Positions 3,721-63,685 are shown, numbered from the stretch's first letter. The stretch: DNA of 64,000 bases from Desulfuromonadales bacterium (GCA_046483795.1 JAWOCM010000091.1:1-64000); one strand, 5' to 3'. Numbers and translations: made by a program. The notes: a model not told the origin generated them from the sequence alone.

Positions 3721-3847
3721 TGGCTAAGCAAAAATTTCGTCCCACAAGGCAGTGGTGGTTTTTCAGGGGCGAAGGCATACATCAGGTATGTCGATGTCCT
3801 GAAAAAACGCCGTAACGCCGTGGGGCGGACTTTTTGCGACGCCATCA
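3721..3847 (+). repeat. Hairpin MITE-like element, family A, copy 1
   Basis: About 93% identical to 9500..9625 by hand alignment. About 47-nt imperfect terminal inverted repeats (TGGCTAAGCAAAAATTTCG... versus the reverse complement of ...GGACTTTTTGCGACGCCA) surround a central CATAC-N5-GTATG stem. Confidence 0.85.
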
Positions 3848-5368
3848 TCTGTCGATCTTTTCAGGTCCCTTCACGATCGCCCGGCCCGATGCCTGGCCGA
3901 TGCCCCGCAGCATGCCGTTGAAAATGAAATAATGAAAGGGGTAGACCGCTCCCCAGTAAAGAAGCCCCGCAAGGCCCCGCGGCCAGAAACGTCCCCGCTG
4001 GCGCAGCTCGACGGTTCGGTCCTCGTTCTCGCGAAGGGTCAGCTCCAGTGTCGCCTGACCGGGCAGCTTCATCTCGGCGACCAGCAGCAGCCGGTAAGGC
4101 TTGTCGACTGCAGCGACGCGCCAGAAATCGAGAGCGTCGCCGGTATGCAGATCCCGGTCGTGACGCCGGCCGCGACCGAGTCCGACGCCGCCGAAAACCC
4201 GGTCCAGAACGCCGCGAAGCTTCCACAGCCAGTTGGCGTAGTACCAGCCGGTGCGTCCTCCGATGGCGAGGATGGCAGGCCAGATCTCTTCAGCGGTACC
4301 GCTCAACACCGCCCGGCGATGGTCATCGAACACCTTGCCGCCGGCCCAGGGCGGATCTTCGGCCGTGTCCCATTCGACCAGGGTACCGGCATCGGTCCAG
4401 CGGCTTTCCACCTGCTGCTGACGGATCCGGTCGAGCGCAAGACGGATCGTCATGCGGCAGTCGAGCAGGTGTTGCGGTACCAGTTCGCGGATCCGCGTAT
4501 CGCGGCAGACGACAGGATTGCGCAGCCCCTCGGCGAGGGGGCGGGCCAGGGCGGCCGGTACCGGCGTCACCAGGTGAATCCAGTAGGAACTCAGCCGAGG
4601 CGTCAGCACCGGCACCGGGATGATCAGGCGACGGCGCAGTCCGGCCTCCTCTGCATATATCTGCATGAGCTTGCGGTAGGTGATAACCTCTTTTTGACCG
4701 ATATCGAACGTCCCGCCTGCGGTTTCGGGTTTATCGAGACAACCGACCAGGTAGCCCAGCACGTTGCGGATGCCGATCGGCTGGCAGGGGGTATCGACCC
4801 ATCGCGGGGTGATCATCACCGGCAGGCGATCCACCAGGTATCGCAGGATCTCAAAAGAAGCGCTTCCCGAACCGATAATCATCGCCGCCCGCAATACGGT
4901 GACCGGGACCTCTCCGCTAGCCAGGAGCCGGGCCACCTCAAGGCGCGATTTCAGGTGATGGCTGAGCTCCTCGCCCTCCTCCCCCAGCCCGCCAAGATAG
5001 ACGATCCGCTCCATCTGGGCCGACTCGGCAGCCGCCGCCATGTTCCGGGCCGCTTCTGCGTCGGTATCGGCAAAATCCTTGACGCCGGGGTGCATTGAAT
5101 GCACCAGGTAATAGACCGCAAAACAGCCACTGCAGGCCTGCTCGAGTGAGGATGGATCGAAGAGATCGCCGGCGACGATCTCGACATGCGGATGATCGGA
5201 CCAGGAACGGGACTGCAGCTTGGCCGGTGTGCGCGCCATCGCGCGAACGCTGTAGCCCGCCTCGAGCAGACGCGGCACCAGTCGTCCGCCGACATAACCG
5301 CTCGCCCCTGTCACCAGAACAGGTGCTTTCTTCTTTCCTTCATTTCCGCCGGTTTTCTCTGTTTCCAT
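3845..5368 (-). CDS. SDR/NmrA-type NAD(P)-binding protein with C-terminal DUF2867-like domain
   Basis: Track ORF 3845..5398. ATG 5368 (METEK...) has an AAGGGAGAG Shine-Dalgarno sequence. It carries a Rossmann motif (VLVTGASGYVGGRLV). The C-terminal half (WYYANWLWKLRGVLDRVFGGVGLGRGRR) resembles DUF2867. Confidence 0.75.
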   Translation of the reverse strand: METEKTGGNEGKKKAPVLVTGASGYVGGRLVPRLLEAGYSVRAMARTPAKLQSRSWSDHPHVEIVAGDLFDPSSLEQACSGCFAVYYLVHSMHPGVKDFADTDAEAARNMAAAAESAQMERIVYLGGLGEEGEELSHHLKSRLEVARLLASGEVPVTVLRAAMIIGSGSASFEILRYLVDRLPVMITPRWVDTPCQPIGIRNVLGYLVGCLDKPETAGGTFDIGQKEVITYRKLMQIYAEEAGLRRRLIIPVPVLTPRLSSYWIHLVTPVPAALARPLAEGLRNPVVCRDTRIRELVPQHLLDCRMTIRLALDRIRQQQVESRWTDAGTLVEWDTAEDPPWAGGKVFDDHRRAVLSGTAEEIWPAILAIGGRTGWYYANWLWKLRGVLDRVFGGVGLGRGRRHDRDLHTGDALDFWRVAAVDKPYRLLLVAEMKLPGQATLELTLRENEDRTVELRQRGRFWPRGLAGLLYWGAVYPFHYFIFNGMLRGIGQASGRAIVKGPEKIDR

Positions 5369-5444
5369 TCCACTCTCCCTTGTTTTCAGCGGTGCCATGC
5401 GCTAACTTTATGGCCGGATCATCATCGAAACAGGATCATCGCAA

Positions 5445-6332
5445 ATGAACCAGTCCAGACATATCAAACTCATCGCCAATCCCGTTTCCGGGGGTAATGC
5501 CCTCAGGAGAATCTATCACATCCGCCAGCTTATGGAAGAGCGCGGCACGTGCGTCGACCTCTTTTTGACGGAAGCCCCCGGCGATGCCGAGAAAGCTGCG
5601 GGCGCCGCCCGTTCGGAAGGGTTCGATCGGATCATAGCCGCCGGCGGCGACGGAACCCTCAACGAGGTCGTCAACGGCATGGCTCCCTGCGAGATTCCCC
5701 TCGCCTTCATCCCGCTGGGCACCACCAACGTCTTCGCGCTGGAAGCCGGCATCCCCTTCGACCTCGAGCGCGCCTTCGACATCGCTCTGCAGGGCGAAGC
5801 ACGACCGGTCTGTCTCGGCCGCGCGGCGGATCGGCTTTTCCTTCTCATGGCCGGCGTCGGCTTCGACGCCGAAGTGGTGCGAAGCGTCAGTCCGGCGCTT
5901 AAAAGGCGCGTCGGCAAGGGCGCCTACCTCTGGAGTGGCCTCAAGGTTTTTGCAGCGTCGACCACCAGTCCCATCCAGATCGAACTTCCCGACGGTGAGA
6001 CGCACACTGGCTACAGTGCCATTGTCGGAAACGGTCGCTATTATGCCGGTCGCTTCTCCCTGACCCCCGGAGCCTCCCTGTTCGACGACGGTTTCGAAGT
6101 CTTCCTGCTTCGCCGCCCCGGTCGCCTCAACCTGCTGCGCATGATCTGGTCCATGCTTCTGCGACGCCGACCGCCCGAGTCGCTTGCTTTGACCTTGAAC
6201 ACCAGGCACCTGAGAATCAGCGGGGACGACCTTCCGGTGCAGCTGGACGGCGACCCCTTCACCACCCTGCCGGTCGATTTTTCCGCCGAATTCGGGAAAA
6301 TCGCCATGGTCTTTCCGAGGAGCGAGCCGTGA
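5445..6332 (+). CDS. YegS/BmrU family lipid (diacylglycerol-type) kinase
   Basis: 295 aa with the DAGK catalytic-domain motif IIAAGGDGTLNEVVNG. The stop overlaps the next start (GTGA). Confidence 0.85.
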   Translation: MNQSRHIKLIANPVSGGNALRRIYHIRQLMEERGTCVDLFLTEAPGDAEKAAGAARSEGFDRIIAAGGDGTLNEVVNGMAPCEIPLAFIPLGTTNVFALEAGIPFDLERAFDIALQGEARPVCLGRAADRLFLLMAGVGFDAEVVRSVSPALKRRVGKGAYLWSGLKVFAASTTSPIQIELPDGETHTGYSAIVGNGRYYAGRFSLTPGASLFDDGFEVFLLRRPGRLNLLRMIWSMLLRRRPPESLALTLNTRHLRISGDDLPVQLDGDPFTTLPVDFSAEFGKIAMVFPRSEP

Positions 6333-6868
6333 CCGAGAATGGGACGATTTACAACGGGCGTATCATCCATCTGAAAATCGAAAATCACCGGCTGCCCGAC
6401 GGGCGCGAGGCCGCTTTCGAGATCGTCCGCCATCCCGGCGGCGCTGCCGTGCTTCCGGTGCTCGATGACGGCCGTCTGGTGCTGATTCGTCAATACCGGG
6501 CGCCGGTGGGGCGGATTGTCCTGGAGATCCCTGCCGGCAAACTCGACGGCGGCGAGCCGCCCTCTCAATGCGCGGAGCGGGAACTGATCGAGGAGACCGG
6601 CTACCGGGCCGGCCGCCTTGAGAAACTGGGCGAGATGCTCACTGCCGTCGGCTTCTGCGACGAGCTGTTGCATCTCTACCTGGCGTCGGAACTCAGTGCC
6701 GTGGATCGAGCCCTGGAACCGGACGAGTTCATCGAAACGGTGATCATTCCGGCCGGGGAGGCCTTCAATCTCGTCGACCGCGGAGAGATCACCGACGGAA
6801 AGACCCAGCTGGTCCTGCTTATGTATCGACAACAGCTGCAGAACAAGGATCAAGGACGCCGGACATGA
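6329..6868 (+). CDS. nudF: NUDIX hydrolase, ADP-ribose pyrophosphatase type
   Basis: 179 aa with a Nudix box (GKLDGGEPPSQCAERELIEETGY). The GTG start overlaps the upstream stop, and its own stop overlaps the nudC ATG. Confidence 0.8.
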   Translation: MTENGTIYNGRIIHLKIENHRLPDGREAAFEIVRHPGGAAVLPVLDDGRLVLIRQYRAPVGRIVLEIPAGKLDGGEPPSQCAERELIEETGYRAGRLEKLGEMLTAVGFCDELLHLYLASELSAVDRALEPDEFIETVIIPAGEAFNLVDRGEITDGKTQLVLLMYRQQLQNKDQGRRT

Positions 6869-7737
6869 ACCCTCTGCCCCAATGCTACCCTTCTCCTCGG
6901 CATCTGCCCTTCAACGCCGAATCGGTCAAAAACGATTTCATCCTGGAAACGCCCGAACACGCCCCGAAGGACGATGTCGGAGCCTGGGTGCTGCTGCAGG
7001 GAACCCGCCTGGTGCTGTATGAAGATTCCGGGGGACCGGCTCTACCGCTGGGGGAACTCCCAGATTTCGCCGCCGCCACCGGTCGGACGCCGGTATTCAT
7101 CGGCACATGGAAAGGTTCAGCCTGCACGGCCATGGCGCTTCCCGGCTCCCTGGAGCTTCCTCCGGGATATGTCTTCGAAAACATTCTGAGCAGCGAACCC
7201 CGCATCGGCATCGAGTTGCTCTCACTGGCTGGAGTCGCCGGCCAGATCCTGCACTGGGAGAAGAACAGCCGTTTCTGCTCGCGCTGCGGCGGCGCTATGG
7301 ACCGTTTGCCGGGTGAGTGGGGAAAGAAGTGCCGCGAATGCGACTATGCCCATTTCCCCCACATCCATCCCTGCGTCATTGTGATCGTGAGACGCGAGGG
7401 AGAGGTCCTGCTGACCCGCAAGGCCGCCTGGCCCGAGGGTCGATACAGCCTGGTGGCGGGTTTTCTCGATTTCGGCGAATGCCTCGAGGAGGCGGTAACG
7501 CGCGAGGTGCGCGAAGAGACAGGCCTCGAAATCGACAATGTGCGCTACATCGGCAGCCAGGCCTGGCCTTTTCCGAGCCAGTTGATGGCCGGTTTCGTCG
7601 CAGACTGGACCGGAGGAGAAATCGTGGTGGAGGAAGCCGAACTGGAGGATGCCCGGTGGTTCGCCGTCGACGATCTGCCCGCCCTGCCGCCGAAGCGAAG
7701 CATTGCACGATATCTTATCGATACCTACGCGACATAG
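6865..7737 (+). CDS. nudC: NAD(+) diphosphatase / NADH pyrophosphatase NudC
   Basis: 290 aa. A zinc ribbon (CSRCGGAMDRLPGEWGKKCRECD) is followed by a Nudix box (GFLDFGECLEEAVTREVREETG). Confidence 0.85.
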   Translation: MNPLPQCYPSPRHLPFNAESVKNDFILETPEHAPKDDVGAWVLLQGTRLVLYEDSGGPALPLGELPDFAAATGRTPVFIGTWKGSACTAMALPGSLELPPGYVFENILSSEPRIGIELLSLAGVAGQILHWEKNSRFCSRCGGAMDRLPGEWGKKCRECDYAHFPHIHPCVIVIVRREGEVLLTRKAAWPEGRYSLVAGFLDFGECLEEAVTREVREETGLEIDNVRYIGSQAWPFPSQLMAGFVADWTGGEIVVEEAELEDARWFAVDDLPALPPKRSIARYLIDTYAT

Positions 7738-7749
7738 CACGTGCAACCT

Positions 7750-7890
7750 CTCTAACGCAAAGTCGCAAAGGGGGCAAAGCCGCAACGAAAACCGTACTAA
7801 CACACAAGCGACTTTCTTTGCGTCATGCTTTCAATCTTTGCGTCTTTGCGTTGAGACGAGCTTCTTTTGGATTATAAGTCCGTTAAAAAT
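7750..7890 (-). repeat. Hairpin element, family C (ACGCAAAG words), one-ended copy
   Basis: The reverse complement of 7805..7890 is about 90% identical to 32418..32505 (TTTTTAA..GACTTATAA.CCAAAAGAAG.TCGTCTCAACGCAAAGACGCAAAGATTGAAA.CATGACGCAAAGAAAG). The opposite arm (CTAACGCAAAGTCGCAAAGGGGGCAAAGCC) pairs with CTTTGCG words. The far terminus is missing next to the nudC stop. Confidence 0.75.
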
Positions 7891-7910
7891 TTTGCGAGCG
7901 ATCATTGAAT

Positions 7911-9017
7911 TCAGGGGTTGTAAGGTTCCCACGGCAGGTCCAGGGCCTCTGCGACCGCTTCGTTGCACAGCGTGCCGTCGAAGGTGTTAATGCCTCGCCT
8001 CAGGGCTTCGTCGCCTCGGGCCGCTTCAGACAGGCCCAGATCGGCGATCCGCCGCAGGTAAGGCAAAGTGCGGTTGGTCAGGGCGAAGGTGCTGGTGCGG
8101 CTGACGGCGCCCGGCATGTTGGCCACGCCGTAATGCAGGACACCGTGAACTGAGAAAACGGGGTTGTCAGGGGTGGTGGCACGACTCGTTTCCACACAGC
8201 CGCCCTGGTCGACGGCCACATCGACCATGACGCTCCCGGCTCTCATCCGCGACACCAGCTCGCGCGACACCAGTATGGGCGCCCTGGCCCCGGCCACCAG
8301 AACTGCGCCGATCACAAGGTCTGCGGCGGCGACCTCGTCCTCGATATTCCGGGGATTGGAGATAAGTGTCCGGATGCGGTTGTGGAAACGATCTTCCAGG
8401 TGGCCCAGTACCGACGGGTCGGTGTCGAGAACCGTCACATCGGCTCCCATGCCGACGGCGATGCGCAGGGCATTGCTGCCCACCGTACCGCCGCCGATTA
8501 TGACAACCTTGCCCCGCCTGACCCCCGGGACCCCCGAGAGCAGCACCCCACGGCCGCCGTTCTCCTTCTGCAGAAAATGGGCTCCGGCCTGGACCGACAG
8601 ACGGCCGGCCACTTCGCTCATCGGCTGGAGAAGAGGCAGAGAACCGTTATCGAGCTGGACCGTTTCGTAGGCGACTCCGGTGACGCCGCTGTCGAGCAGC
8701 GCCCGCGTCAGCTCCGGAGCCGGTGCCAGGTGCAGAAAGGTGAACAGGATCTGCCCCGGGCGAAGCAGGTCGTATTCGGAGGGAAGCGGTTCCTTGACCT
8801 TGACGATCGTCTCGGCTTCGGCATAAACTTTTCCGGCATCGCCGACCAGGCGGGCCCCTGCCTGTCTGAATTCGTCATCGCCGATATCGCTGCCCTCTCC
8901 GGCACCGCTCTGGACGATCACGACATGCCCTGCTTCGACCAGTTCGCGGGCTCCGGCCGGAGCCATGCCGATCCGGTATTCATGTCTTTTTATTTCTTTC
9001 GGAACTCCGATGACCAT
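7911..9017 (-). CDS. ald: Alanine dehydrogenase
   Basis: Track ORF 7911..9032. ATG 9017 gives the canonical N-terminus [22 protein letters not shown]. An NAD-binding motif ([13 protein letters not shown]) is present. Confidence 0.9.
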
Positions 9018-9090
9018 GAGTACGCCGCCCATTGTGAGGGGTCAGAGCGATAAGCCCCTAAAAAAATCTTTTCAGAAATCACCAGAACTT

Positions 9091-9130
9091 CTTCGTGTCT
9101 TTGTGGCTTGGTGGTAGATTCAGGATTATT
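9091..9130 (-). repeat. Degenerate half copy of family B element
   Basis: CTTCGTGTCTTTGTGGCTTGGTGGTAGATTCAGGATTATT aligns with the right half of 20715..20844 (TTTGTGTCTTGGTGTCTTGGTGGTGGATTTTCGGTTTTTT). Confidence 0.5.
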
Positions 9131-9202
9131 TATCAATCCCGTCAATCAAAGTTTAGCAGATCCGCACCATATGTGCAGTAAACCGTGGGAAAGGGGCCAT
9201 CC

Positions 9203-9451
9203 ATGGATCAATCCTTTACCAAACGCCACTTCATGGTCGACCGGCGGCGCATCGCCGATCTGAGATTCATTCTCGAGAGTTACGACGGACTGGCTTTCGT
9301 CCGCTCCCTCGATGGCATGGCCGGCCTGGTCGAGATCGCCTATCCGCCGTCCCGTCGAACCGACGCCGAGGCGCTTCTGCACGCCTTGACCCTCGAGCTC
9401 GACATGGAGCCTGCCGCACCTCCGGCTCCCGGAACCTACCCGCCTATCTGA
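9203..9451 (+). CDS. DUF4911-like small protein
   Basis: Track ORF 9185..9451. ATG 9203 follows GAAAGGGG. The sequence MDQSFTKRHFMVDRRRIADLRFILESYDGLAFVRSLD... matches my recollection of the DUF4911 family pattern (IaflrfILEgYDGLa). Confidence 0.6.
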   Translation: MDQSFTKRHFMVDRRRIADLRFILESYDGLAFVRSLDGMAGLVEIAYPPSRRTDAEALLHALTLELDMEPAAPPAPGTYPPI

Positions 9452-9499
9452 GAAACGCAATGAGCTAATCTGTGATGCTCTTCGCAAAAGCCCGGTGGA

Positions 9500-9625
9500 T
9501 GGCTAAGCAAAAATTTCGCCCTGCAAGGCCTGGTGGTTTTCCAGGGGCGAAGGCATACATCAGGTATGTCGAGGTCCTGAAAAAACGCCGTAACGCCGCA
9601 GGGCGGACTTTTTGCGACGCCATCA
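9500..9625 (+). repeat. Hairpin MITE-like element, family A, copy 2
   Basis: Second copy of the 3721..3847 element in the same orientation. An extra TGCTCTTCGCAAAAG terminus-like word lies just upstream at 9476..9490. Confidence 0.85.
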
Positions 9626-10012
9626 ATCGGTGGTCACTTCGAACTCGGGGGAATCGAGAATCGAGCGCTTGACCGCACACTGGTCTGTGGCCCGGATAAT
9701 CGCCTTCTTGTACTTCTCCGGAAATCCCGTCGGAAGAGTGATCCGCATTGCGACCCTGGAAGGCAGCCGCGTTTCCGGATCCCGCTCCATATCCACCGAC
9801 AGTTTCAGACCCTCGGTCTCGAGCTCGCGCTGATGGCAGAAGCGGAGAGCGAAAAATCCGGCGCAGGTCCCCATAGAGGCCAGGTAGAGATCGAACGGCG
9901 AAGGGGCGCTTCCTTCGCCGCCGTTTTCCTTCGGCTGATCGGTGCGAATGGTAAACCCGTCGACGCGGGCTTCGACAGCAACGCCGCCGGGAAAAGTGAT
10001 GTCCATAGACAT
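9623..10012 (-). CDS. OsmC family peroxiredoxin-like protein
   Basis: Track ORF 9623..10036. ATG 10012 has an AAGGAGA Shine-Dalgarno sequence at 5-nt spacing. OsmC signature: GSAPSPFDLYLASMGTCAG ... ATDQCAVKRSI. Confidence 0.85.
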   Translation of the reverse strand: MSMDITFPGGVAVEARVDGFTIRTDQPKENGGEGSAPSPFDLYLASMGTCAGFFALRFCHQRELETEGLKLSVDMERDPETRLPSRVAMRITLPTGFPEKYKKAIIRATDQCAVKRSILDSPEFEVTTD

Positions 10013-10055
10013 GAGAATCTCCTTTGTGTTTTGCAATAGAGTGAAACCTGAATAC

Positions 10056-10133
10056 GTGAGGGGTGAGGCGTGAGGAGAATAAGCTCAGAGCCTTGGTTTG
10101 CCCCGGGAATTCCCCTCACGCCTCAGCCCTCAC
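10056..10133. repeat. Hairpin built from GTGAGG heptamer words (family D)
   Basis: The left arm GTGAGGGGTGAGGCGTGAGGAG (10056..10077) matches the reverse complement of CCCCTCACGCCTCAGCCCTCAC (10112..10133) at 20 of 22 positions. The loop is about 34 nt. It lies between the pcrA stop and the osmC-family start. Confidence 0.7.
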
Positions 10134-10199
10134 CTGGTAAAATCTGCACTACAGCGATGAAATCAGATTTAGGGGACAGCAGGATCAGGCTCATGCCGG

Positions 10200-12245
<2,046 letters not shown>

Positions 12246-12270
12246 CGTTTCTAACTCTCTTACATCCCGT

Positions 12271-12334
12271 TAAAACAAAAGACAGCCGCGTCCGACCGGC
12301 CTGTCCCGGCCAATCTCATCCGGTATCGGACGCG
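12271..12334 (-). terminator. GC-rich hairpin + U-tract (terminator or attenuator) 26 nt upstream of the pcrA start
   Basis: On the minus strand, CGCGTCCGA(TA)CCGG ... CCGGTCGGACGCG is followed by GCTGTCTTTTGTTTTA. The stem is 13 bp with a 2-nt bulge. Confidence 0.55.
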
Positions 12335-12627
12335 CTGATCATATACCTGTTGCCGGCGGAGAAAAAGGCTTGATTTTATAATCCTGAACTTGCTATTTTA
12401 ACCGCCATGTTCCGATTAACTGTTGTCATAGTAGGTGTGGTGTGGGCGTCGTTGCTGCTTTTTTCCTGGAGCGGAGCTGTTGTTTCACCTCCGGCTCAGG
12501 AAAAAAGCAGCGCCGTTGATCGCCCACTGGCTCGCTAAGCTTTTCTGGAACCATACCGCCATGGTTCTCCCACGGATCCTCCCGAATCCCGACGTATGGG
12601 GCAAAATATCCTTTGATCCGCGTCTCT

Positions 12628-13551: not shown

Positions 13552-13612
13552 GTCTCGATCATGGCATTAAAATAAAATTCCGGCAAGATTTGCCGCCCCC
13601 CTCATCGCCAAC

Positions 13613-20709: not shown

Positions 20710-20714
20710 AAACG

Positions 20715-20844
20715 ATGCCTTCGCAAAAAGTCATCTTTTACCACCAAGGCACCAAGGGCACCAAGAAAACATCACTAAGATTCAATGGGTTACCTTTGTG
20801 TCTTGGTGTCTTGGTGGTGGATTTTCGGTTTTTTGCGAGACCAT
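20715..20844 (-). repeat. Hairpin MITE-like element, family B (CACCAAGG words), full copy
   Basis: The reverse complement aligns end to end with 63560..63685 (ATGG.CTCGCAAAAAA.CC..AATCCACCACCAAGACACCAAG.CACAAAG ... TTCTTGGTGCCCTTGGTGCCTT.GTGGT ... TTTTT.CGA). It fills the gap between the GH13 stop and the glgA start. Confidence 0.85.
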
Positions 20845-20860
20845 CATGGAGCGGCAGTCG

Positions 20861-22405
20861 ATGAAAATTCTTATCATAGCCCCGGAAGTCACTCCTTTTG
20901 CCAAGAGCGGCGGTCTTGCCGACGTCGCCGGCAGCCTGCCCTGCGCCCTCAAGAAGCGCGGCCATGACGTGCGCATCGTCATGCCATACTATCGCTCCAT
21001 CGCCGAAAGCGAATTTTCCGCACCGAGAAGCGGTCGGCGAATGACCGTTCTGGTCGAAGAGCAACCCTGTGAGGGGCACCTGCGGACTCTCGACCACGGA
21101 GGGATTCCCGTTCATTTCATCGACAATCCCTTCTTTTTCGATCGCCCCGGCCTTTACGGCGATGCTGCCGGCGACTATCCGGACAACGCTGCACGCTTCG
21201 GTTTTTTTTGTCGAGCTGTCCTGCACATGCTTCGAGGCCTTGACTGGAGTCCTGAAATCCTCCACCTCAACGACTGGCAAACCGCCCTGATACCGGTCCT
21301 GCTGAAGAACGAACTGGAGGGGGAGCCGTTCTACAACGCCATGGCGACAGTGATGACTATCCACAACCTCGGTTACCAGGGAAACTTTCCGCCGACAGTG
21401 CTCAAGACTCTCGGCCTTGATCGAGCACTCTACACCACCGACGGGCTGGAATTTTATCACCAGGTTTCTCTTCTCAAAGGCGGCATCCTCTTTGCCGATC
21501 TGCTGACTACTGTCAGCGAAACCTACTGCCGCGAAATCCAGACTCCGGCGATGGGGCACGGCTTCGACGGCATTCTGAGAAGCCGGCGGGAGAAGCTTTT
21601 CGGTGTCATCAACGGCCTCGATACCGAGCTGTGGAATCCCTCCGGCGACCCGGCTTTACCACAACCCTACTCGGTCGACTCTCTGGCGGGAAAAGCAGAG
21701 GACAAGTCGGCCCTCCAGGAAGAACTCGGTCTGGACATTCAGCCCGGGATCCCCATTCTGGCCGTTATCTCCCGGCTCGACCGGCAAAAAGGAATGGATC
21801 TGATCCTGGAGGTCTGGGAAGAACTGATGCTGAGAAAGGTCCAGTTCGTGCTGCTCGGCACAGGAGATCCGAAACTGATGCAAGCTTTCTCCCTTTGCAC
21901 AAAGGACCATGCCCGGCAGGCCTCCATCAATCTGGAGTTCGACGAGGCCCTCTCCCGCAGAATTTATGCCGGCGCAGACATGCTGCTCGTTCCCAGCCGC
22001 TACGAGCCGTGCGGTCTGGCCCAGCTGATTGCACTGCGATATGGAACCGTCCCCCTTGTGCGCAGAACCGGCGGACTCGCCGATACCATCACCGACGTTG
22101 CCGTCGATCCTGAAAAGGGCAACGGCTTTACTTTTGACATGCTGACGGGGGAGAATATGCTTGACGCCATCGACCGTGCTCTGGAACTCTATCGGGACGA
22201 GGTGCGATGGAAGGACGTCATGCGCCGGGGCATGAACGCCGATCACTCGTGGGACCGTTCGGCCCTCGAGTACGAACGACTTTACGGAACAGCTCTGGAG
22301 AATCGACGTGAACAAGACGAACAAGGAACAGCCGCAGGAGGAAGAGGAAGAGGAAGAGGAAGAGGAAGAGGAAGCGGAGACATCCCGTTTCCCGGAACTC
22401 GATGA
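20861..22405 (+). CDS. glgA: Glycogen (starch) synthase GlgA
   Basis: Track ORF 20798..22405. ATG 20861 follows GGAGCGG. The canonical N-terminus is MKILIIAPEVTPFAKSGGLADVAGSLP. The last about 30 aa (EQDEQGTAAGGRGRGRGRGRGSGDIPFPGTR) are a low-complexity tail produced by reading the GAGGAA repeat. Confidence 0.9.
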   Translation: MKILIIAPEVTPFAKSGGLADVAGSLPCALKKRGHDVRIVMPYYRSIAESEFSAPRSGRRMTVLVEEQPCEGHLRTLDHGGIPVHFIDNPFFFDRPGLYGDAAGDYPDNAARFGFFCRAVLHMLRGLDWSPEILHLNDWQTALIPVLLKNELEGEPFYNAMATVMTIHNLGYQGNFPPTVLKTLGLDRALYTTDGLEFYHQVSLLKGGILFADLLTTVSETYCREIQTPAMGHGFDGILRSRREKLFGVINGLDTELWNPSGDPALPQPYSVDSLAGKAEDKSALQEELGLDIQPGIPILAVISRLDRQKGMDLILEVWEELMLRKVQFVLLGTGDPKLMQAFSLCTKDHARQASINLEFDEALSRRIYAGADMLLVPSRYEPCGLAQLIALRYGTVPLVRRTGGLADTITDVAVDPEKGNGFTFDMLTGENMLDAIDRALELYRDEVRWKDVMRRGMNADHSWDRSALEYERLYGTALENRREQDEQGTAAGGRGRGRGRGRGSGDIPFPGTR

Positions 22406-29286: not shown

Positions 29287-29331
29287 TGTTCTTTCCCTTC
29301 AGTTAATCGCAAAAAAAATAACCGACCGTTC

Positions 29332-32579: not shown

Positions 32580-32600
32580 TTTTAATTTCAGTCAATCAAA

Positions 32601-32647
32601 TTGGCATCGAAAAAAGTCATTTTCGACACCAAGACACCAAGAAGAAC
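32601..32647 (-). repeat. Half copy of family B element directly upstream of elbB
   Basis: TTGGCATCGAAAAAAGTCATTTTCGACACCAAGACACCAAGAAGAAC aligns with the left half of 20715..20844. It ends at the elbB ribosome binding site (AGGAAGGAGG). Confidence 0.7.
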
Positions 32648-53589: not shown

Positions 53590-53609
53590 GAATCTCCCAG
53601 CCTCCTCGC

Positions 53610-53633
53610 AAAAAAGCCGGATTAAAGATCCGG
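53610..53633 (-). terminator. Weak terminator candidate after the 384-aa kinase gene
   Basis: CCGGAT-TAAAG-ATCCGG preceded by A6 on the plus strand, which gives a U-tract on the minus strand. The A-run is part of a CCTCGCAAAAAAGCCGG word that resembles the repeat-family terminal motif. Confidence 0.3.
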
Positions 53634-56468: not shown

Positions 56469-56556
56469 GATGCACTCCCGATCAAGATAAGAATCAGTGT
56501 ATATCTGGTGAACTATACTAAGGAAACTCCAAGAATATTTCCAGCTTTTTCGTTTC

Positions 56557-57312: not shown

Positions 57313-57318
57313 TCCCTG

Positions 57319-57351
57319 AAAAAAAGGGAGGCACATCGGCCTCCCTTTTTT
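57319..57351 (-). terminator. Rho-independent terminator after gpmI (bidirectional shape)
   Basis: A7-GGGAGGC-ACATCG-GCCTCCC-T6. It lies 5 nt downstream of the gpmI stop (57356), and its U-tract ends about 7 nt before the comF ATG. Confidence 0.7.
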
Positions 57352-57355
57352 GATT

Positions 57356-58906
57356 CTATTTTTCCCGCACAAGCGTGCTGCCGGTCATCTCTTTCGGCAC
57401 CGGCAGATCAAGCAACCTCAGAAGCGTCGGCGCAATATCCGCGAGGATTCCGTTTTCCAGGAGTTCCCCCTTGCGGTCGGGATCGACAAGTATGAGAGGA
57501 ACCGGATTGCCCGTATGTGCGGTCTGCGGCTCACCGTCCTCATCGATCATCGTCTCGCAATTGCCGTGATCAGCAGTCACCAGAAGAGAGCCGCCGGCAC
57601 GAAGAACCGAATCCACAACCCGGCCCACACACTCATCAACGGTCTCCATTGCGGAAACAGCGGCGTCCATGAAGCCTGTGTGCCCCACCATGTCGCCGTT
57701 GGCATAGTTGAGGATGATCACATCATATTGTCCCGAATCGACGCATTTGACAACCTCATCCGTCACCTCGGGAGCGCTCATCTGGGGCTTTTCGTCATAT
57801 GTGGCCACTTCCTGAGGGGAAGGAACCATGACACGTTCCTCTCCGGGAAAGGGCTCCTCGTTGCCGCCATTGAAAAAGAAAGTGACATGGGCATATTTTT
57901 CGGTTTCGGCAATGCGCAACTGGCGCAGCCCGGCTTCGGAGAGCACTTCACCGAGAATTTCCCGGTAGTCCTCGGGCGGAAAGGCGGTCGGAAGGTCGAA
58001 GGTGGCATCGAACTGGGTCATGCAGACATATGTCGACAGGTCGGGACGGCCGGGGCGGTCGAAGCGGTTGAAATCCTCATGAGTGAAGGCGCGAGTGATC
58101 TCCCGGGCCCGGTCGGAGCGGAAGTTGAAGAAAATAATGCCGTCATCGTCTTCGACCCGTCCGACAGGGGTGCCGTCGCTGAGGATAACCCGCGGCTGGA
58201 CGAACTCATCGTTCTGTCCTGCCGCGTAAGATCCCTGGATCGCCTCTTCGCTGTCGGTGGCGGGCTCTCCTTCACCAAGGACCATGGCGCGCCATGCCCG
58301 CTCGACGCGATCCCACCGATTGTCGCGGTCCATGGCGTAGTACCGGCCGATGACCGTTGCTATACGACCCGTTCCAAGGCGAGACAACTCCTCCTCAAGC
58401 TCCTTGAGGTAGCGGGCACCGCTCTTCGGGGGCGTATCGCGGCCGTCCATGAAACAATGGACGCAGATATCGTCGAGGCCGAACTTGCATGCCATTTCCA
58501 ACAAAGCATAAAGATGGGTATTGTGCGAATGGACTCCTCCATCGGAAAGCAATCCCATAAGATGGAGGGTCCCGCCCCTCTTTTTGATCGTCTCCAATGC
58601 CTCGACAAGGACCGTATTTGTTTCGAGAGTACCATCCTCGATGCTCTTGAAAATACGGGTCAGATCCTGATAAACGACCCGTCCGGCACCAAGATTCATA
58701 TGACCGACTTCGGAATTCCCCATCTGCCCCTCCGGCAGGCCGACGGCCGGGCCGGAAGCGCCGAGTTGCGTCGTGGGGTAATCCCGTTGCAGGGCATCGA
58801 GACGGGGAGTTTTCGCCTGACAGACAGCGTTATTGTCGCAGGAAGGGTTGATCCCCCAGCCGTCGAGGATGACCAGGGCCAATGGCCGTCTTACGTCTGG
58901 TCCCAT
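57356..58906 (-). CDS. gpmI: 2,3-bisphosphoglycerate-independent phosphoglycerate mutase
   Basis: 516 aa with motifs [29 protein letters not shown] and TADHGN. Confidence 0.92.
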
Positions 58907-60267
58907 TCTTCACGCTCTCCATGATGGATAGGGCGCAACTCCGAGGGCCGGGCGCTGCGCAATTCGTCGCTGCCGCTGAGGCTGTAAGTGCCCCAACCGC
59001 CGCAGGATCGGCAACGGCTCTGCCATTCGGATACCTGTTCGCCGCACTCCTCGCAATCGTAAGGCAGACGCAGGCGCTGCTCCAGCCCGAGAGCCTTCTG
59101 GTATTCGCGGATCGCTTCATCGCTGTCCTTGTACCGCCGGTAGCCCTCGGCAAGCAGTTGATGAAGCATGGGAATCTCGACACCGCTTCCTTCGATAATC
59201 TGCAGCTGCTCCATCGCCTCGTCAACCATCTCCAGACGCAGGCAGAGTTTGCCGAAAAAGAGGCGCAGTATGAGATCGTCGCTTTTCTCGACAACCTGGT
59301 TGCGATAAAAAGAGAGCAGAGACGAGGGATCTTCCTCGCTCATGTAGAGATCTTCGAGTCGTGAGAGGAACACTCCCTTTCCGAGCTCTCTGTAGCCTTC
59401 TTTCCAGGATTTGGCCGCTTCTTCCGTGCGCTGAAGTTTCCGCAGCGCATCGCCGAGGGAAACCCGGGCCGGTGCGAAGGAGGGATCTTCACGAACGATC
59501 TGTTCGAGCTCCCCGACCGCTTTTTTGGTTTCACCGGCAGCCAGCGTCTCCTGTGCGACCTCGTACCGCAGGTAGAGCTGCTTGCGCTTTTCTTCATCGA
59601 CCCGCTTGCCTCCCTGGCAGGCCTTGAGAACCCGCTTCTGCAGATCCAGCGCCTCCTGCCAGTGCCCCTGCGACATTTTCAGGTCGCGCAAACTGCGCAG
59701 CGCCTTGCGATTGGCGCTTTCAATGGCGAGGATCTCTTCATAGATCTTGGCCGCCTCGCCTTCCCTGTCCATCCCTTCGTAGGTCGATGCCAGCTTGAAC
59801 AGGACTTCCGTGCTCGAAGGCTCGATCTCCTTCGCCTTGTGCAACAAGGCAATCGCTTCCTGCGGTTCACCTTCCTGTTCGGCGACACTGGCCAGCGCCA
59901 GGAACGTTTCGATACGCGACGGATCGCGATCGAGGGCACGCTGAAGAAGAGTGCGGGCTCGTTTGATATCGCCGGAGAGCAGGCGGGCGACACCCTCCCG
60001 ATAAATGGAGATAACCTCCCGTGATTTTTTCTCCTGCCGGTTCCCCCTCCAGTGCTTCACCTGATGACTGAAGCTGTGGTAAATCTGAAGAAGGAATCCG
60101 CCGGAGAACCCGATCAGGATGCTCCCCACCACCACGATGGCCGCTGACGTCGTCACCGCCTTGTCACCGGTCAGATAGAGAGTGATTTCCTGGGGATTGA
60201 TCATCATGAAGTAGATGAAAACGACCAGGAAGAAAATAAGCAGGAGTGGAAAGGTCAAAAAGGTCAT
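58891..60267 (-). CDS. lapB: LapB/YciM-like lipopolysaccharide assembly protein (LapA-like transmembrane N-terminus + TPR + rubredoxin-type zinc finger)
   Basis: 458 aa with an N-terminal membrane segment, multiple TPR repeats and a C-terminal [22 protein letters not shown] motif. It overlaps gpmI by 16 nt. Confidence 0.75.
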
Positions 60268-60288
60268 GAGTGCCTCCTCGGGCAGCGG

Positions 60289-60642
60289 CTATTCGCCGAA
60301 TTTCTCCACTTCGGATTTGCAGTCCACGCAGTACCGGGAGAAAGGCCGGACGTCCATTCGGCGAGGCGGGATCTCCTCCTCACAGCGGGCGCAAAGGCCG
60401 TATTCATCGTTGTCGATACGCTCCAGGGCGGCATCGATATCCTGTATCGTCCGCCTTTGCGTTTCACCGAGATTAAACAGAACATCCTTGCTGTACGTGG
60501 TCGAAGACATGTCACCGATGTCGGGAACGCCGTCCTGCCCCAGTTTACGTCCTGCTTCATAGGATTGTTGAACACCATCCAGAATCTCGTCACGCATCCT
60601 GAGAAGCTTCTTGCGTGTCTCCTCAAACTCTTTCGACTGCAT
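60289..60642 (-). CDS. dksA: DksA/TraR family C4-type zinc finger transcription factor
   Basis: 117 aa with a coiled coil and the motif CARCEEEIPPRRMDVRPFSRYCVDC. Confidence 0.85.
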   Translation of the reverse strand: MQSKEFEETRKKLLRMRDEILDGVQQSYEAGRKLGQDGVPDIGDMSSTTYSKDVLFNLGETQRRTIQDIDAALERIDNDEYGLCARCEEEIPPRRMDVRPFSRYCVDCKSEVEKFGE

Positions 60643-60673
60643 TCGCTGGCTCCTGGGGGCAGGCTGAGCGCCC

Positions 60674-61147
60674 TTATCGGTTATGGTATGGCTCGTTGCG
60701 GATGATGGTAAAGGCCCGGTACAACTGTTCCAGAAGGAAAAGACGCGCCATCTGGTGAGTAAAGGTCATCGCCGAGAGGGAAAGAACCATGTGGCTCCTC
60801 TGTCTGACCGACGGACTCAACCCGTAGGCTCCGCCGATGATGAAAACAAGTTCGGAGGCTCCCCGCACCATATGGTTTTCCAGCTCGCCCGCCAGCTCTT
60901 CGCTGCTCAGCGCCCTGCCATTCTCGTCAAGTGAGATCACAACGGCCTGGCGCGGGATCCTGGCCAGGATCCGTTCCGCCTCACGCTCGCGGATGTAATC
61001 CGGATCGGCCTTTTTGCCGCCCTTCTCCTCCTTGAGTTCAACCTCCGTCAACGGAAGATACCGGTTGACCCGACCCGAGAATTCTTCGACTCCCTGCCGA
61101 AGAAACGCTCCGGTGAGCTTGCCGACGCAGAGAAGACGCAATTTCAC
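60674..61147 (-). CDS. rlmH: 23S rRNA (pseudouridine1915-N3)-methyltransferase RlmH
   Basis: 157 aa SPOUT fold, with FIIGGAYGLS and the conserved C-terminus NEPYHN. Confidence 0.9.
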   Translation of the reverse strand: MKLRLLCVGKLTGAFLRQGVEEFSGRVNRYLPLTEVELKEEKGGKKADPDYIREREAERILARIPRQAVVISLDENGRALSSEELAGELENHMVRGASELVFIIGGAYGLSPSVRQRSHMVLSLSAMTFTHQMARLFLLEQLYRAFTIIRNEPYHNR

Positions 61148-61560
61148 CGAGCGGGCGCCTTTCTTTTCCAGTCATATTCCTCGGGAACCTCAATCTCTGG
61201 CGCTTCACTCCAGAGACCGTCCAGATCGTAAAATTCGCGGACCGGCTCCTGAAAGATATGCACCATGACGTCTCCGTAATCGATGAGCGCCCAGCGTCCT
61301 TCCTTGACCCCTTCGAGGGCGATCGGACTGATCTGATGACTTTTTTTCAGGCCGAGACGCACCGACTCGACGATGGCCTGAACCTGCCTGTCGGAGGTTC
61401 CGGAGGCGATCAACAGAAAATCTGTGATACTGGAAAGTTCCCGCACCTGCAGAATACGAACGTTCAGCGCTTTCTTTTCCAGTGCATAAGCCGCACAGAG
61501 AACAGCTTTTTCTTTAGAATTCAAACTATATCGACCTTTCTGCGGCCCTGTATAGACCAT
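61144..61560 (-). CDS. rsfS: Ribosome silencing factor RsfS (iojap)
   Basis: Within track ORF 61144..61749. The start is ATG 61560, or TTG 61524 one nt after the nadD stop. Core: ITDFLLIASGTSDRQVQAIVESV...WALIDYGDVMVHIFQEPVREFYDLDGLW. Confidence 0.85.
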   Translation of the reverse strand: MVYTGPQKGRYSLNSKEKAVLCAAYALEKKALNVRILQVRELSSITDFLLIASGTSDRQVQAIVESVRLGLKKSHQISPIALEGVKEGRWALIDYGDVMVHIFQEPVREFYDLDGLWSEAPEIEVPEEYDWKRKAPAR

Positions 61561-62185
61561 TTTCAATAATATAATCTTCCACCTGCGGCGGCACCAGGTA
61601 TCGGATGGACAGTCCCTCATCCACCTTGTGCCGGATGTCGGTAGAGGAGATGTCGAGCAGGGTTTCAGTGAAGAAGATGACTGTTTTCCCGCTCTGATGA
61701 CGCAGACTTTTCGCCGCGCTATCATAGCAGAACTGGTCTGCCATGGCAACCGGTACCAGGCTCATCGGATCGCCGGACGGGACATCCGGGCGGGAGGTGA
61801 CGACAATGTGTGCAAGATCGAAAAGTCGTTGATATTGGTACCAGGAATCGATCTCGCGAAAGGAATCCATGCCCATCAGGAAATAGAAATCAGCACCCGG
61901 GTTCTTTTCCCGGAGAATTTCCAGGGTATGAACTGAAAAGCTCTTGCCCGACCGCCGGCCTTCCAGATCGGAGGCGACAAAGGCGGGATTGTCTGCAACC
62001 GCGGCCTCCACCATGGCGAGGCGGTGCCGGAAGGGTACTTTTTCCGCCACCGCCTTGTGAGGCGGAACGGCAGCCGGCATGAAAAGGATCTGGTCGAGAC
62101 CGCATCCTTCACGCACCTCTTCCGCGATGCGCAGATGCGCCAGATGGACAGGATTGAATGTGCCGCCGAGAATGCCTATGCGCAT
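61526..62185 (-). CDS. nadD: Nicotinate-nucleotide adenylyltransferase NadD
   Basis: 219 aa: MRIGILGGTFNPVHLAHLRIAEEV (HxGH-type motif) and ISSTDIR. Confidence 0.9.
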   Translation of the reverse strand: MRIGILGGTFNPVHLAHLRIAEEVREGCGLDQILFMPAAVPPHKAVAEKVPFRHRLAMVEAAVADNPAFVASDLEGRRSGKSFSVHTLEILREKNPGADFYFLMGMDSFREIDSWYQYQRLFDLAHIVVTSRPDVPSGDPMSLVPVAMADQFCYDSAAKSLRHQSGKTVIFFTETLLDISSTDIRHKVDEGLSIRYLVPPQVEDYIIENGLYRAAERSI

Positions 62186-62230
62186 GGTAGACCTGTGACA
62201 GGTGACGAAAAATCGTGACGAGTGACGCCT

Positions 62231-63487
62231 TTATCCCCTGACCTGACCGTCCCCGAGGACGATGAACTTGCGGGTGGTCAGATCCTCCAGGCCCATCGGA
62301 CCGAAGGAATGCAACTTGGTCGTGGAGATGCCGATCTCGGCACCGAGCCCGAACTGGTTGCCGTCGGAGAAGCGACTCGAGGCATTGACCATGACGACGC
62401 TGGAGTTGACTTCCCTGATAAATCGCTGGGAACGGGCATAATCCCGGGTGACGATCACCTCTGTGTGGAGTGAGCCGTAGGTGTTGATATGGTCGATGGC
62501 CTGGTCCATGTCGTCGACGACACGAACGGACAGGATCAGATCGAGATATTCCTCCGACCAGTCTTCCTCTGTGGCGGCAATGACTGCAGGAGCAAACTCC
62601 CGGGTCGTCTCACAGCCGCGCACCTCGACGCCCTTGGCCCGCAGGCTCTCGACCGCGCGCGGCACGAAGGTCTCGGCAATGTCCTTGTGTATCAGCAGGG
62701 TCTCCATGGAGTTGCACACTCCCGGACGCTGCACCTTGGCATTGACACAGATATCTTCGGCCATGTCGAAATCGGCAGTGGCGTCGACATAGGTATGACA
62801 GACACCCTTGTAATGCTTGATGACGGGAATGCGCGAGTTCTCGCTGACGAAACGGATCAGCCCTTCACCGCCCCGGGGAATGATCAGATCGATCTCGTTC
62901 TCTAATTTCAACAGTTCGGTGACAGCCGAGCGATCCGTGGTCGTGACCACCTGGATCGCCGACTCCGGGAGCCCCATTTTTTTCATTTCATTCCTGAGAA
63001 TCACGCCGATGGCGGTGTTGGAATGAATCGCTTCGCTACCGCCTCGCAGCACGACGGCATTTCCGCTTTTCAGACACAAACCCGCGGCATCGGCGGTCAC
63101 GTTGGGACGCGACTCGTAAATGATGCCGATCACTCCGAGCGCAATGCGCATTCGCCCGACCTGCAACCCGTTGGGCCGGCGCCACATGCCTGTAATTTCG
63201 CCCACCGGGTCGGAGAGAGCGGCCACCTCTCGCAGACCTTCGACCATCGCCTTGATCCGCTCTTCATCGAGCACCAGACGATCGATCATCGCCGGGGACA
63301 AGCCCTTTTGGCGACAGGCTACGAGGTCCTTCTCATTCTCCGTCATCAACGTTTCGGCGGCGGATTCCAGTCCATTCGCCATGCAATGCAGCAGTTCATT
63401 CTTGACGCCGGAGGACAGGTTTGCCATGACCCGCGACGCCTTTCTGGCGTCTCGCGCCACCTGAAGCATCTCGTCATAAACGCTCAT
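62231..63487 (-). CDS. proA: Glutamate-5-semialdehyde dehydrogenase ProA
   Basis: 418 aa with [14 protein letters not shown] and the catalytic Cys in VCNSMETLL. Confidence 0.92.
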
Positions 63488-63559
63488 TTCGAATACTCCC
63501 TCTCTTTGCAGACAGCCGACCGGCGTCCCCAGTAGACCATTTCGCTCGAATCAAATCTT

Positions 63560-63685
63560 ATGGCCTCGCAAAAAAAACCACAATCCACCACCAAGACACC
63601 AAGGCACAAAGAAAACCCATTGATTTTTTTAATACTTTCTTGGTGCCCTTGGTGCCTTAGTGGTGACAAATGATTTTTCGAGAAT
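63560..63685 (+). mobile_element. Hairpin MITE-like element, family B, full copy with 12-bp flanking direct repeat
   Basis: 126 bp, ATGGCCTCGCAAAAAAAACC...GATTTTTCGAGAAT. The arms are made of CACCAAG / CTTGGTG words. A perfect direct repeat GAATCAAATCTT flanks it at 63548..63559 and 63686..63697; the second copy contains the proB stop codon. Confidence 0.85.

Follow-up and report, generated by a model that had tools for sequence, protein, structure and literature searches.

Why do several short intergenic hairpins with unrelated interiors end in the same sequence within one stretch of a Desulfuromonadales genome? The window analysed here is that whole stretch of 64,000 nucleotides. A first-pass annotation had listed 12 strings of a terminal motif in it and had read them as the ends of elements served by one mobilisation or recognition system acting on several cargo sequences, or alternatively as a structural class in which the ends and the ability to pair are conserved. 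All 12 strings are in place, those on the given strand at 3721, 9500, 9476, 20715, 32601, 63560 and 53604 and the reverse complements at 3831-3844, 9609-9622, 20829-20844, 63672-63685 and 7890-7905. The motif is clearly more frequent than base composition predicts. TCGCAAAAA occurs 7 times in the 64-kb window against 0.90 expected, a count reached in none of 100 shuffles, and TGGNNTCGCAAAAA with at most one mismatch occurs 6 times against 0.43 expected. The complete terminus reads 5'-GATGGnnTCGCAAAAAGTC and stands inverted at both ends of the window elements and of 105 external elements. A literature search for the motif string yielded no relevant paper. Its interpretation as a sigma-54 promoter or an IHF site was rejected, as the spacing is unsuitable.

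Eleven of the 12 strings fall in seven intergenic hairpin elements that belong to three families, A, B and C. The remaining one, at 53604, had also been taken for an element end and is the T-tail of a terminator-like hairpin outside the system (53604-53633, minus strand), which reads TCGCAAAAAA on the plus strand; on the minus strand the hairpin consists of CCGGATCTTTAATCCGG and CTTTTTTGCG. All seven copies are intergenic and non-coding, with element sizes of 110-200 bp and no ORF. The interiors of the three families are unrelated, and every element in the window folds as a long hairpin, in line with the architecture first described (z-scores -2.9 to -7.5).

Family A is represented by two copies on the plus strand with 96% identity over 95 nt. 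A1 (3695-3846) lies between convergent ORFs and carries a hairpin interior; on its left, a decayed outer end GATGGTTCTCGTCAAAAC (3695-3712) is followed by the inner end-like copy ATGGCTAAGCAAAAA (3720-3734), and on its right stands the terminal repeat CTTTTTGCGACGCCATC (3830-3846); its hairpin has an energy of -65.8 kcal/mol (z -7.5). A2 (9474-9624) has the outer left end GATGCTCTTCGCAAAAG (9474-9490), the inner copy ATGGCTAAGCAAAAA (9499-9513), the hairpin and a right terminal repeat with its CCATC end at 9624. The strings TGGCTAAGCAAAAA at 3721 and 9500 had been listed as ends and are actually the inner, second copy of the end; the string at 9476 is the genuine outer left end of A2, with a decayed A1 counterpart at 3696.

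In family B, B1 (20714-20845, plus strand) sits between a glycoside-hydrolase-like ORF and glgA (best match 90%); its ends are GATGCCTTCGCAAAAAGTC and TTTTTTGCGAGACCATC, and its arms contain CACCAAGG three times and the complement. B2 (63560-63685, minus strand) is inverted relative to B1 and has an intact end ATGGCCTCGCAAAAAA at 63560 and a decayed second end ATTCTCGAAAAATC, the reverse complement of 63672-63685. In the truncated copy B3 (32600-32644, plus strand), which adjoins C2, nothing but the left end ATTGGCATCGAAAAAAGTC with the first CACCAAG words survives. The string at 32601 belongs to this truncated B copy and that at 7890-7905 to a third family, C. C1 (7737-7905, minus strand) is truncated on its low-coordinate side, carries ACGCAAAG words in its arms and has the intact end ATGATCGCTCGCAAAATTTT, the reverse complement of 7886-7905. 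C2 (32399-32598, plus strand) spans the full length, and its terminal repeats, CACGACTCACCTATCTTTTTAA ... TTTTAATTTCAGTCAATCA, are decayed at either end; a 69-nt stretch of C1 and C2 is 96% complementary. The window contains no transposase gene, and exact-protein look-ups returned no record for the ORF at 2887-3678 or for protein P0005.

Arms built of tandem words had been proposed for families A and B alike. They are clear in B (CACCAAGG three times) and C (ACGCAAAG three times), and weak in A. Such tandem arrays of 7-9-mers on both arms could be bound by proteins of the host, be it IHF/HU or global regulators yet to be identified, and similar paired inverted arrays, built of tandem hepta- and octanucleotides, have been described in Geobacter metallireducens as putative sites of global regulators (Aklujkar et al. 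2009, PMC2700814). The architecture is that of families B and C. However, the words vary from family to family while the ends stay common, tandem words are lacking from many families that have these ends, no protein has ever been tied to such sites and the copy number is explained by mobility. We consider it very unlikely that protein binding to the arrays is what these elements are about.

The termini are not confined to this genome. In public genomes and metagenomes at least 28 interiors with no mutual relationship, most of them 110-160 bp long, lie between the same inverted ends; these are the clusters into which 109 elements fall. The hosts are almost all Thermodesulfobacteriota, with a few MAGs of Mariprofundaceae. 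The pattern TCGCAAAAA-N85-115-TTTTTGCGA gave 120 matches in genomes, about 30-40 of which are strong hairpins with the extended ends TGATGGnnTCGCAAAAAGTC. One 43-nt element consists of the two terminal repeats only, with AACTT on both flanks. Viral contigs carry four MITE copies and one partial transposase relative, and are uninformative on the boundaries. BLAST searches of the PLSDB plasmids with A1 and one external element gave chance matches or small palindromes only. A match to an 'integrase' of Candidatus Megaera lies within coding sequence and was set aside as irrelevant.

A direct duplication of the flanks appears at exactly one boundary (ATGG/.../CCAT) and register 8. In a genome set of 29 elements the flanks match at 4.93 of 8 positions against 2.93 in the control, and in an independent set of 76 metagenome elements at 4.57 against 3.33; neither value was reached in 10,000 permutations. 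The duplication has a core of 6 bp and a target of about AAWWTT, often preceded by C and followed by G. Within the window, duplications are clear only in A2, where AATCTGT (9467-9473) faces AATCGGT (9625-9631) with 6 of 7 positions matching, and in B2, which is flanked by the 12-bp direct repeat GAATCAAATCTT (63548-63559 and 63686-63697); A1 shows a weak one (3 of 6) and B1 none. We take the signal in the two sets to be a target-site duplication.

The proposed comparison with related genomes revealed presence and absence differences at the A2 and B1 sites. The intergenic space orthologous to A2 in a relative of 82% identity (L124) measures only 14 nt, and A2 is absent. B1 is kept in a relative of 90% identity (L121), and two relatives of 83-84% identity (L122 and L123) have a remnant of 12-17 nt made of both tips (ATGGCG..GACCATC). 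A perfectly clean empty site was not recovered at the orthologous loci. Together with the seven copies in 64 kb, the differences at A2 and B1 give the multiplicity and insertion polymorphism that characterise a MITE. Contig L125, which derives from the same organism, breaks inside the A2 hairpin and inside C1; the contigs L121 and L125 end within elements, and L124 has runs of N at intergenic positions.

A check for protein-coding elements with the same ends had been suggested. A search for full-length elements around the first 130 loci found no distant inverted partners and no recurrent ORF clusters. The same termini do bound elements of 1.9-2.0 kb (1901-1994 bp) that encode a DDE transposase of 583-598 aa. 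The element at 999-2902 of contig L232 is 1904 bp long, ends in ATGGCCTCGCAAAAAGTC and ATGGCCCCGCAAAAACTC and contains an ORF of 585 aa with the domains DUF772, DDE_Tnp_1 and DDE_Tnp_1_6, all above the Pfam cut-offs. Its best-scoring family is IS1182 (NF033551, E 2e-43), hence we term the element IS1182-like; the score of 149 bits lies under the curated NCBIfam cut-off of 270, and the family placement is therefore approximate. The layout is that of IS1182, with three domains in one ORF, a length below about 2 kb and inverted ends of 16-19 bp. Three further transposase lineages (57-89% identity) were retrieved by protein identity alone. In each of them the motif precedes the start codon by about 130 nt, and in two it also directly follows the stop codon. 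In sum, three of the four lineages are bounded by the motif at both ends, and the fourth (L262-264) has the left end and a more decayed right inverted repeat. The short elements accordingly have termini in common with a transposase-encoding element. The flanks of the long elements include CAATTTTG on both sides of L254 and the core AATATT on both sides of L262. For one 1994-bp element ten insertion sites were recovered, on short metagenome contigs where most flank pairs mismatch; chimeric assembly of the repeat may account for this.

The partner first suggested was a Y1 HUH transposase, either RAYT acting on REP-like palindromes or TnpA of the IS200/IS605 type. The elements are indeed intergenic, palindromic and multicopy, as this suggestion would have it. 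However, they are 110-160 bp long against 20-40 bp for REP sequences, they possess terminal inverted repeats and duplicated flanks, both of them absent from elements moved by HUH enzymes, and the gene found between the same ends encodes a DDE transposase of IS1182/IS5 type; no HUH gene was seen. The hallmarks of IS200/IS605 elements, that is absence of terminal inverted repeats and of a duplication, subterminal hairpins and a TnpA(Y1)/TnpB partner, do not describe these elements. We regard handling by an HUH enzyme as practically negligible. ISL3, IS6, IS256 and IS481, considered as parents on the basis of their ends and duplication sizes, were dropped after the transposase was found. ISGme8 (IS110) and ISGme9 (IS481), found beside hairpins of G. 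metallireducens, insert next to such elements and are not their parents.

The shared ends, the flank duplications and the transposase elements with the same ends lead us therefore to the view that the elements are very probably families of MITEs that an IS1182-like transposase mobilises in trans. The original idea of one mobilisation system acting on several unrelated cargos is thereby upheld. The transposase would bind the common terminal repeats and move any short DNA that carries them inverted, and insertion would occur at short A+T-rich sites (about AAWWTT) with duplication of about 6 bp. The binding, the mobilisation in trans and the source of the transposase in this genome are what we infer. 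The elements are real and fairly ordinary selfish DNA, widespread in sulfate- and metal-reducing bacteria.

There is one family that does not fit easily into this picture. The family A hairpin measures 125 nt and shows 85-95% conservation over metagenomes and at least two orders. In 26 sequences 96.6% of the cells are paired, and both partners have changed in 17 of 38 pairs; shuffled data gave 5.8 such pairs (none of 500 shuffles reached the observed value) and slid controls 4-5. G·U pairings (G·T/T·G) number 124 against 5 A·C/C·A pairings, and folding favours the given strand over its complement by 14.8 kcal/mol, in 25 of the 26 sequences. The ends are asymmetric and conserved (CTAAGC versus CGTCGC) and the left end is duplicated. 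A purely selfish model that relies on terminal repeats only does not predict the covariation of family A. It might be argued that the elements work mainly as structured RNAs or as hairpins of a single strand, be it to stabilise mRNA 3' ends, to terminate transcription or as small RNAs, and that the motif is the conserved base of the stem and not a transposase site. The covariation, the excess of G·U pairings and the better folding of one strand speak for this, as do the folds of the window copies with z-scores of -4 to -7. However, Rfam 15 gave no match at gathering score in the window, and at permissive thresholds A1 and B1 returned miRNA-like hairpin noise only. One abundant family has no strand asymmetry, and the orientation of family A shows no clear bias relative to neighbouring ORFs, as judged from crude ORF calls. 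The flank duplications and the transposase elements with the same ends show mobility, and the ends are common to at least 28 unrelated interiors. We judge such a role as the main one to be improbable. An RNA role may well exist in addition to mobility, by exaptation or selection on the fold, and not instead of it. The alternative of a structural class with conserved pairing also holds in part for family A, with its compensatory covariation.

A further proposal is that family A is more than a passive MITE and has been selected to fold as one specific single strand. Transposition could have spread a structured RNA that became domesticated, perhaps to stabilise 3' ends or to regulate, or the transposition intermediate could require a folded single strand. 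We give this proposal a limited chance, and a folded single-strand intermediate would be unexpected with this type of DDE transposase. If it were true, the asymmetry of the ends and the duplicated left end would be functional.

MITEs with palindromic structure have been described before. ERIC and Correia/NEMIS hairpins act at the RNA level when they are co-transcribed, and the strand-specific fold signal of family A may be compared with this. Like the present elements they are palindromic MITEs of about 100-150 bp, in enterobacteria and Neisseria; they have unrelated termini, other duplications (TA for Correia) and other hosts. The precedent for a pair of MITE and insertion sequence in the IS1182 family is MITEPye1 and ISPye18 of Paracoccus yeei (PMC11578231). 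MITEPye1 is likewise short, non-coding and intergenic, with a long stem-loop, IS1182-type terminal repeats and flanks of short direct repeats, and in both systems mobilisation in trans is inferred. In contrast, it has another terminal sequence, another host phylum and duplications of 4 bp, compared to a core of about 6 bp here, and it is a single family of 1-3 copies per chromosome, whereas here one end serves dozens of unrelated interiors in several orders. Another MITE, Chunjie, comes from Geobacter uraniireducens (Chen et al. 2008, via PMC3184786 and PMC10969869). It is mostly intergenic and forms a very stable hairpin, as our elements do; a length of 178-235 bp, a high A+T content, 21-bp terminal repeats and 9-bp duplications set it apart. 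Related hosts of the Desulfuromonadales, namely Geobacter metallireducens, G. bemidjiensis and Pelobacter carbinolicus, have multicopy sequences or 'global regulator binding sites' (Aklujkar et al., PMC2700814, PMC2996986, PMC3543383), intergenic multicopy palindromes among which are paired, inverted arrays of tandem 7-9-mers as in B and C. The ends of Gmet_R4001-6, GGCTCATGCAAAAC...GTTTTGCATGAGC, resemble the terminus described here. In those papers, however, these repeats are listed as putative regulatory sites or RNAs and not as transposons with a common terminus, duplications and a transposase.

The system described here could offer a mechanism for much of the multicopy intergenic DNA that has long been catalogued, without an explanation, from Desulfuromonadales such as Geobacter and Pelobacter, and that in part bears the annotation of regulator-binding sites. 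The terminus GATGGnnTCGCAAAAAGTC together with the A+T-rich duplication of about 6 bp provides a diagnostic for masking and annotating these repeats, which break metagenome assemblies. The elements are also tied to IS1182-like transposases, a large clade whose annotation is poor and whose members are mostly labelled hypothetical. With one transposase end and dozens of captured interiors, this is a natural system useful for studying how MITE families originate and, with family A, for asking whether some MITEs become structured RNAs.

The strings that the first-pass annotation had read as a shared terminal motif are all present where it placed them. Dinucleotide-preserving shuffles predict 0.90 copies of the core TCGCAAAAA in 64 kb and the window holds 7, a count reached in 0 of 100 shuffles and not the frequency expected from base composition; for TGGNNTCGCAAAAA, allowing up to one mismatch, the window has 6 copies where 0.43 are expected. 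These sites are not independent, being the ends of seven elements that are all intergenic by ORF positions: A1 (3695-3846) and A2 (9474-9624) of family A; B1 (20714-20845), the inverted B2 (63560-63685) and the truncated copy B3 (32600-32644) of family B; and the truncated C1 (7737-7905) and C2 (32399-32598, with two decayed ends) of family C, which had barely been noticed before. All form long imperfect hairpins, whose folding z-scores relative to shuffled sequence run from -2.9 to -7.5. Eleven of the twelve motif sites first counted are element ends; the remaining one, at 53604, is rejected as the T-tail of an unrelated terminator-like hairpin on the minus strand. A thirteenth exact match, at 29307, lacks a hairpin and appears to be a chance occurrence. 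The tandem-word architecture ascribed to the hairpins holds for B (CACCAAGG three times) and C (ACGCAAAG three times) and is weak in A. No transposase gene is encoded within the 64-kb window. At 12454-12511 a 26-nt inverted repeat, with a 6-nt loop and arms that are 85% complementary, is bordered on each side by A/T runs (GCTGCTTTTTTCC...GGAAAAAAGCAGC) and looks like an intergenic bidirectional terminator.

Outside the window the terminus was sought in two ways. Scanning a single genome of each species for TCGCAAAAA-N85-115-TTTTTGCGA gave at least 120 matches, which were sorted by folding energy; those listed fall into chance pairs from all phyla versus about 30-40 strong hairpins. Among the matches listed, the strong hairpins have ends extended to TGATGGnnTCGCAAAAAGTC ... 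GACTTTTTGCGAnnCCATCA and hosts that are nearly all Thermodesulfobacteriota (Desulfuromonadales, Desulfobacterales, Desulfobulbales, Syntrophus), together with Mariprofundaceae MAGs; their interiors are mutually unrelated, and A-like and B-like copies are present in other orders. A one-ended metagenome scan with GATGGNNTCGCAAAAAGTC found 125 ends, 77 of them with an inverted partner at 50-350 nt, most commonly at 120-160 nt. The pooled sets hold 28 interior clusters among 109 elements, and the termini of different families align, so that the failure to align with many copies, which the annotation had held against its own idea, did not appear. Several families with this terminus are built on small palindromes frequent in many bacteria, e.g. 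GTCATTCCGGCGAAAGCCGGAATC. [quoted passage not shown]

Left and right flanks were compared at every boundary offset and register, with flanks from different elements as a control that absorbs target preference too. In the genome set the sole outstanding combination was a boundary just outside ATGG...CCAT at register 8, with 4.93 of 8 matches versus 2.93 in the control, a value reached by none of 10,000 permutations. The same boundary gave 4.57 versus 3.33 in 76 unique metagenome elements (0 of 10,000 permutations). The two flanks agree at positions 2-5 in 58-62% of elements versus 27-39% in controls, and positions 1 and 6 are chiefly A and T. The outermost positions act like element sequence: CCAT is followed by C in 66 of 76, while the corresponding left-flank base is C in just 27 of 76. 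This is most simply read as a terminus 5'-GATGG...CCATC-3' and a duplicated 6-bp A+T-rich target, approximately AAWWTT and often with C before and G after. The duplications are direct and not inverted, as seen in the non-palindromic cases CCGCTTTG/CCGCTTTG, CAATTATG/CAATTATA and CAATGGTG/CAATGGTC. A 43-nt element in locus L206 (about 4868-4910) consists of two termini only (GATGGGCTCGCAAAAAGTC CATCG GACTTTTTGCGACGCCATC) and has AACTT on each flank, and L143 contains a 58-nt deletion derivative of family A; together they suggest that the termini alone may be enough for mobility. Within the window the signal is modest: the flanks of A1 match at 3 of 6 positions, and a duplication was looked for at B1 and none was found. 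B2 lies between perfect 12-bp direct repeats, GAATCAAATCTT, at 63548-63559 and 63686-63697, twice the usual duplication length; the right-hand repeat includes the stop codon (TCA on the plus strand) of the downstream minus-strand gene. The right flank of A1, ATCTGT (3847-3852), equals the left flank of A2 (9468-9473), which may be fortuitous, may reflect target preference, or may be left over from recombination between A1 and A2.

A protein-coding element with the same ends, for which the annotation had proposed a search, was found. Two metagenome ends without a nearby partner (L232, L137) run into a promoter-like stretch and an ORF starting MFHARDCKTGSLFDKW. In L232 the element spans 999-2902 (1904 bp), ends in ATGGCCTCGCAAAAAGTC and, on the other strand, ATGGCCCCGCAAAAACTC, and holds a single 585-aa ORF, whose product matches DUF772, DDE_Tnp_1 and DDE_Tnp_1_6, all over Pfam thresholds. 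The top NCBIfam match is IS1182 (E 2e-43), but the score of 149 bits falls short of the curated cut-off, 270, and we therefore term the transposase IS1182-like. A protein search gave thousands of relatives, chiefly on contigs of 1.9-2.5 kb, as expected of an assembly-breaking repeat. Three more lineages were picked on protein identity only, a choice thus blind to the DNA motif; in all three the motif lies some 130 nt upstream of the start codon, and in two of them also just past the stop codon. The three are an element of 1994 bp at ten sites (ATGGTTTCGTAAAAAGTC...GACTTTTTACGAGACCAT), one of 1901 bp (L261) and one at L262-264 (ACGCCCTCGCAAAAAGTC...GACTTCTTGCAGGGGCGT), the last with a right end that is a more decayed inverted repeat. 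The same target preference is seen in all flanks; L254 has CAATTTTG on each flank, and L262 has AAATATTG and CAATATTT, with the core AATATT. On many short contigs the flanks of the 1994-bp element do not match, which we attribute, without proof, to chimeric assembly of the repeat. Two full copies of the 1994-bp element stand in tandem at L251/L252 (Ga0210051_1009994) with exactly 8 nt between them (CAACTTTG). At L263 an ISL3-family transposase gene (289-1521) lies immediately upstream of the IS1182-like copy; the otherwise identical L262 locus has a thiolase gene in its place, either by rearrangement or by chimeric assembly at the left end of the element.

Related genomes, a comparison also proposed earlier, show the elements both kept and missing. 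For the window organism, the best glgA match is at 90%, and a Logan contig gives 100% identity to the alanine dehydrogenase. B1 is retained upstream of glgA in the 90% relative (L121). In two relatives at 83-84% (L122, L123) the site holds only 12-17 nt, composed of both tips of an element (ATGGCG..ATGACCATC and AGGCGC..TGCAAGACCATC), as if the palindrome interior had been deleted or an excision had left a footprint. In the 82% relative (L124) the two genes that border A2 are only 14 nt apart. Contig ends from the same or related organisms fall within A2, C1 and B1, as is usual with repeats. The L124 MAG contig (GCA_012974725.1) has eleven N runs, six of them of 75-130 nt; the one examined (5937-6011) is intergenic, with flanks GTCAAAAAGC ... 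CATTTTTGAC, as if hairpin repeats of the window kind had been unassembled or masked. The glgA product (glycogen synthase, 20861-22405) has an unusual C-terminal tail, GGRGRGRGRGRGSGDIPFPGTR, and more distant homologues (about 483-487 aa) are without it.

Shared inverted termini, many unrelated interiors, flank duplications, same-ended transposase-bearing elements and loss or absence at orthologous sites bear out the main line of the annotation, one mobilisation system acting on several unrelated cargoes. The window elements add new members to a known class, that of MITEs having an IS1182-like partner. Following the standard MITE model, the IS1182-like DDE transposase would recognise the 19-bp terminus and would mobilise in trans any short DNA with this terminus at each side. 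The alternative of a REP/RAYT or IS200/IS605 system is contradicted by element size, terminal repeats, duplications and the DDE transposase. Paracoccus yeei offers a close precedent in MITEPye1 and the IS1182-family ISPye18, with duplications of 4 bp (PMC11578231). Aklujkar et al. listed 'multicopy nucleotide sequences' for G. metallireducens, G. bemidjiensis and P. carbinolicus, among them tandem hepta- and octanucleotides in paired inverted arrays that were read as global-regulator (IHF/HU) sites (PMC2700814, PMC2996986, PMC3543383). One of these families, Gmet_R4001-6, has ends GGCTCATGCAAAAC...GTTTTGCATGAGC similar to the window terminus; the catalogues identified no common terminus, duplications or transposase partner. 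Chunjie, the named Geobacter MITE, has another size and duplication length. A further window hairpin (10056-10133) carries the tandem words GTGAGGG GTGAGGC GTGAGGA on one of its 25-nt arms and the complementary words on the opposite arm (92% complementarity), is without the TCGCAAAAA terminus at its borders, and is similar to the G. metallireducens 'class 4' sites of CCCTCAC type.

The left side of family A is doubled, an outer end ATGnnnTCGCAAAA being followed 23-27 nt on by an inner copy ATGGCTAAGCAAAAA (A1, A2 and, from other taxa, L016, L031, L106), and the inner copy is the one that pairs with the right end. The duplications sit outside the outer end (CAATTATG/CAATTATA in L016; AATCTGT / AATCGGT in A2); hence the composite moves as one unit, and the TGCTCTTCGCAAAAG at 9476 is the true left terminus of A2. 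In an alignment of 26 copies (window, MAGs, metagenomes, one viral contig) standard pairs fill 96.6% of pair cells. Both sides have changed in 17 of 38 pairs, versus 5.8 in shuffles (0 of 500 reach 17) and 4-5 in slid controls. Pairings include 124 G·T/T·G versus 5 A·C/C·A, and sporadic single changes, by our own count from the per-pair table, about 27 G·U versus 5 A·C. As RNA, the ATGGCTAAGC... strand has the more stable fold, by 14.8 kcal/mol relative to its complement, in 25 of 26 sequences. This asymmetry is family-specific: the abundant GTCATTCCGG family lacks it and two others have it; with crude ORF calls, no orientation bias of family A towards neighbouring genes was detected. The data point to selection on the fold of one specific strand, as RNA or single-stranded DNA, with covariation counts inflated by shared ancestry. 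A purely selfish model leaves the family A covariation unexplained. What is notable about these elements is the many unrelated interiors on one terminus and the spread over Thermodesulfobacteriota.
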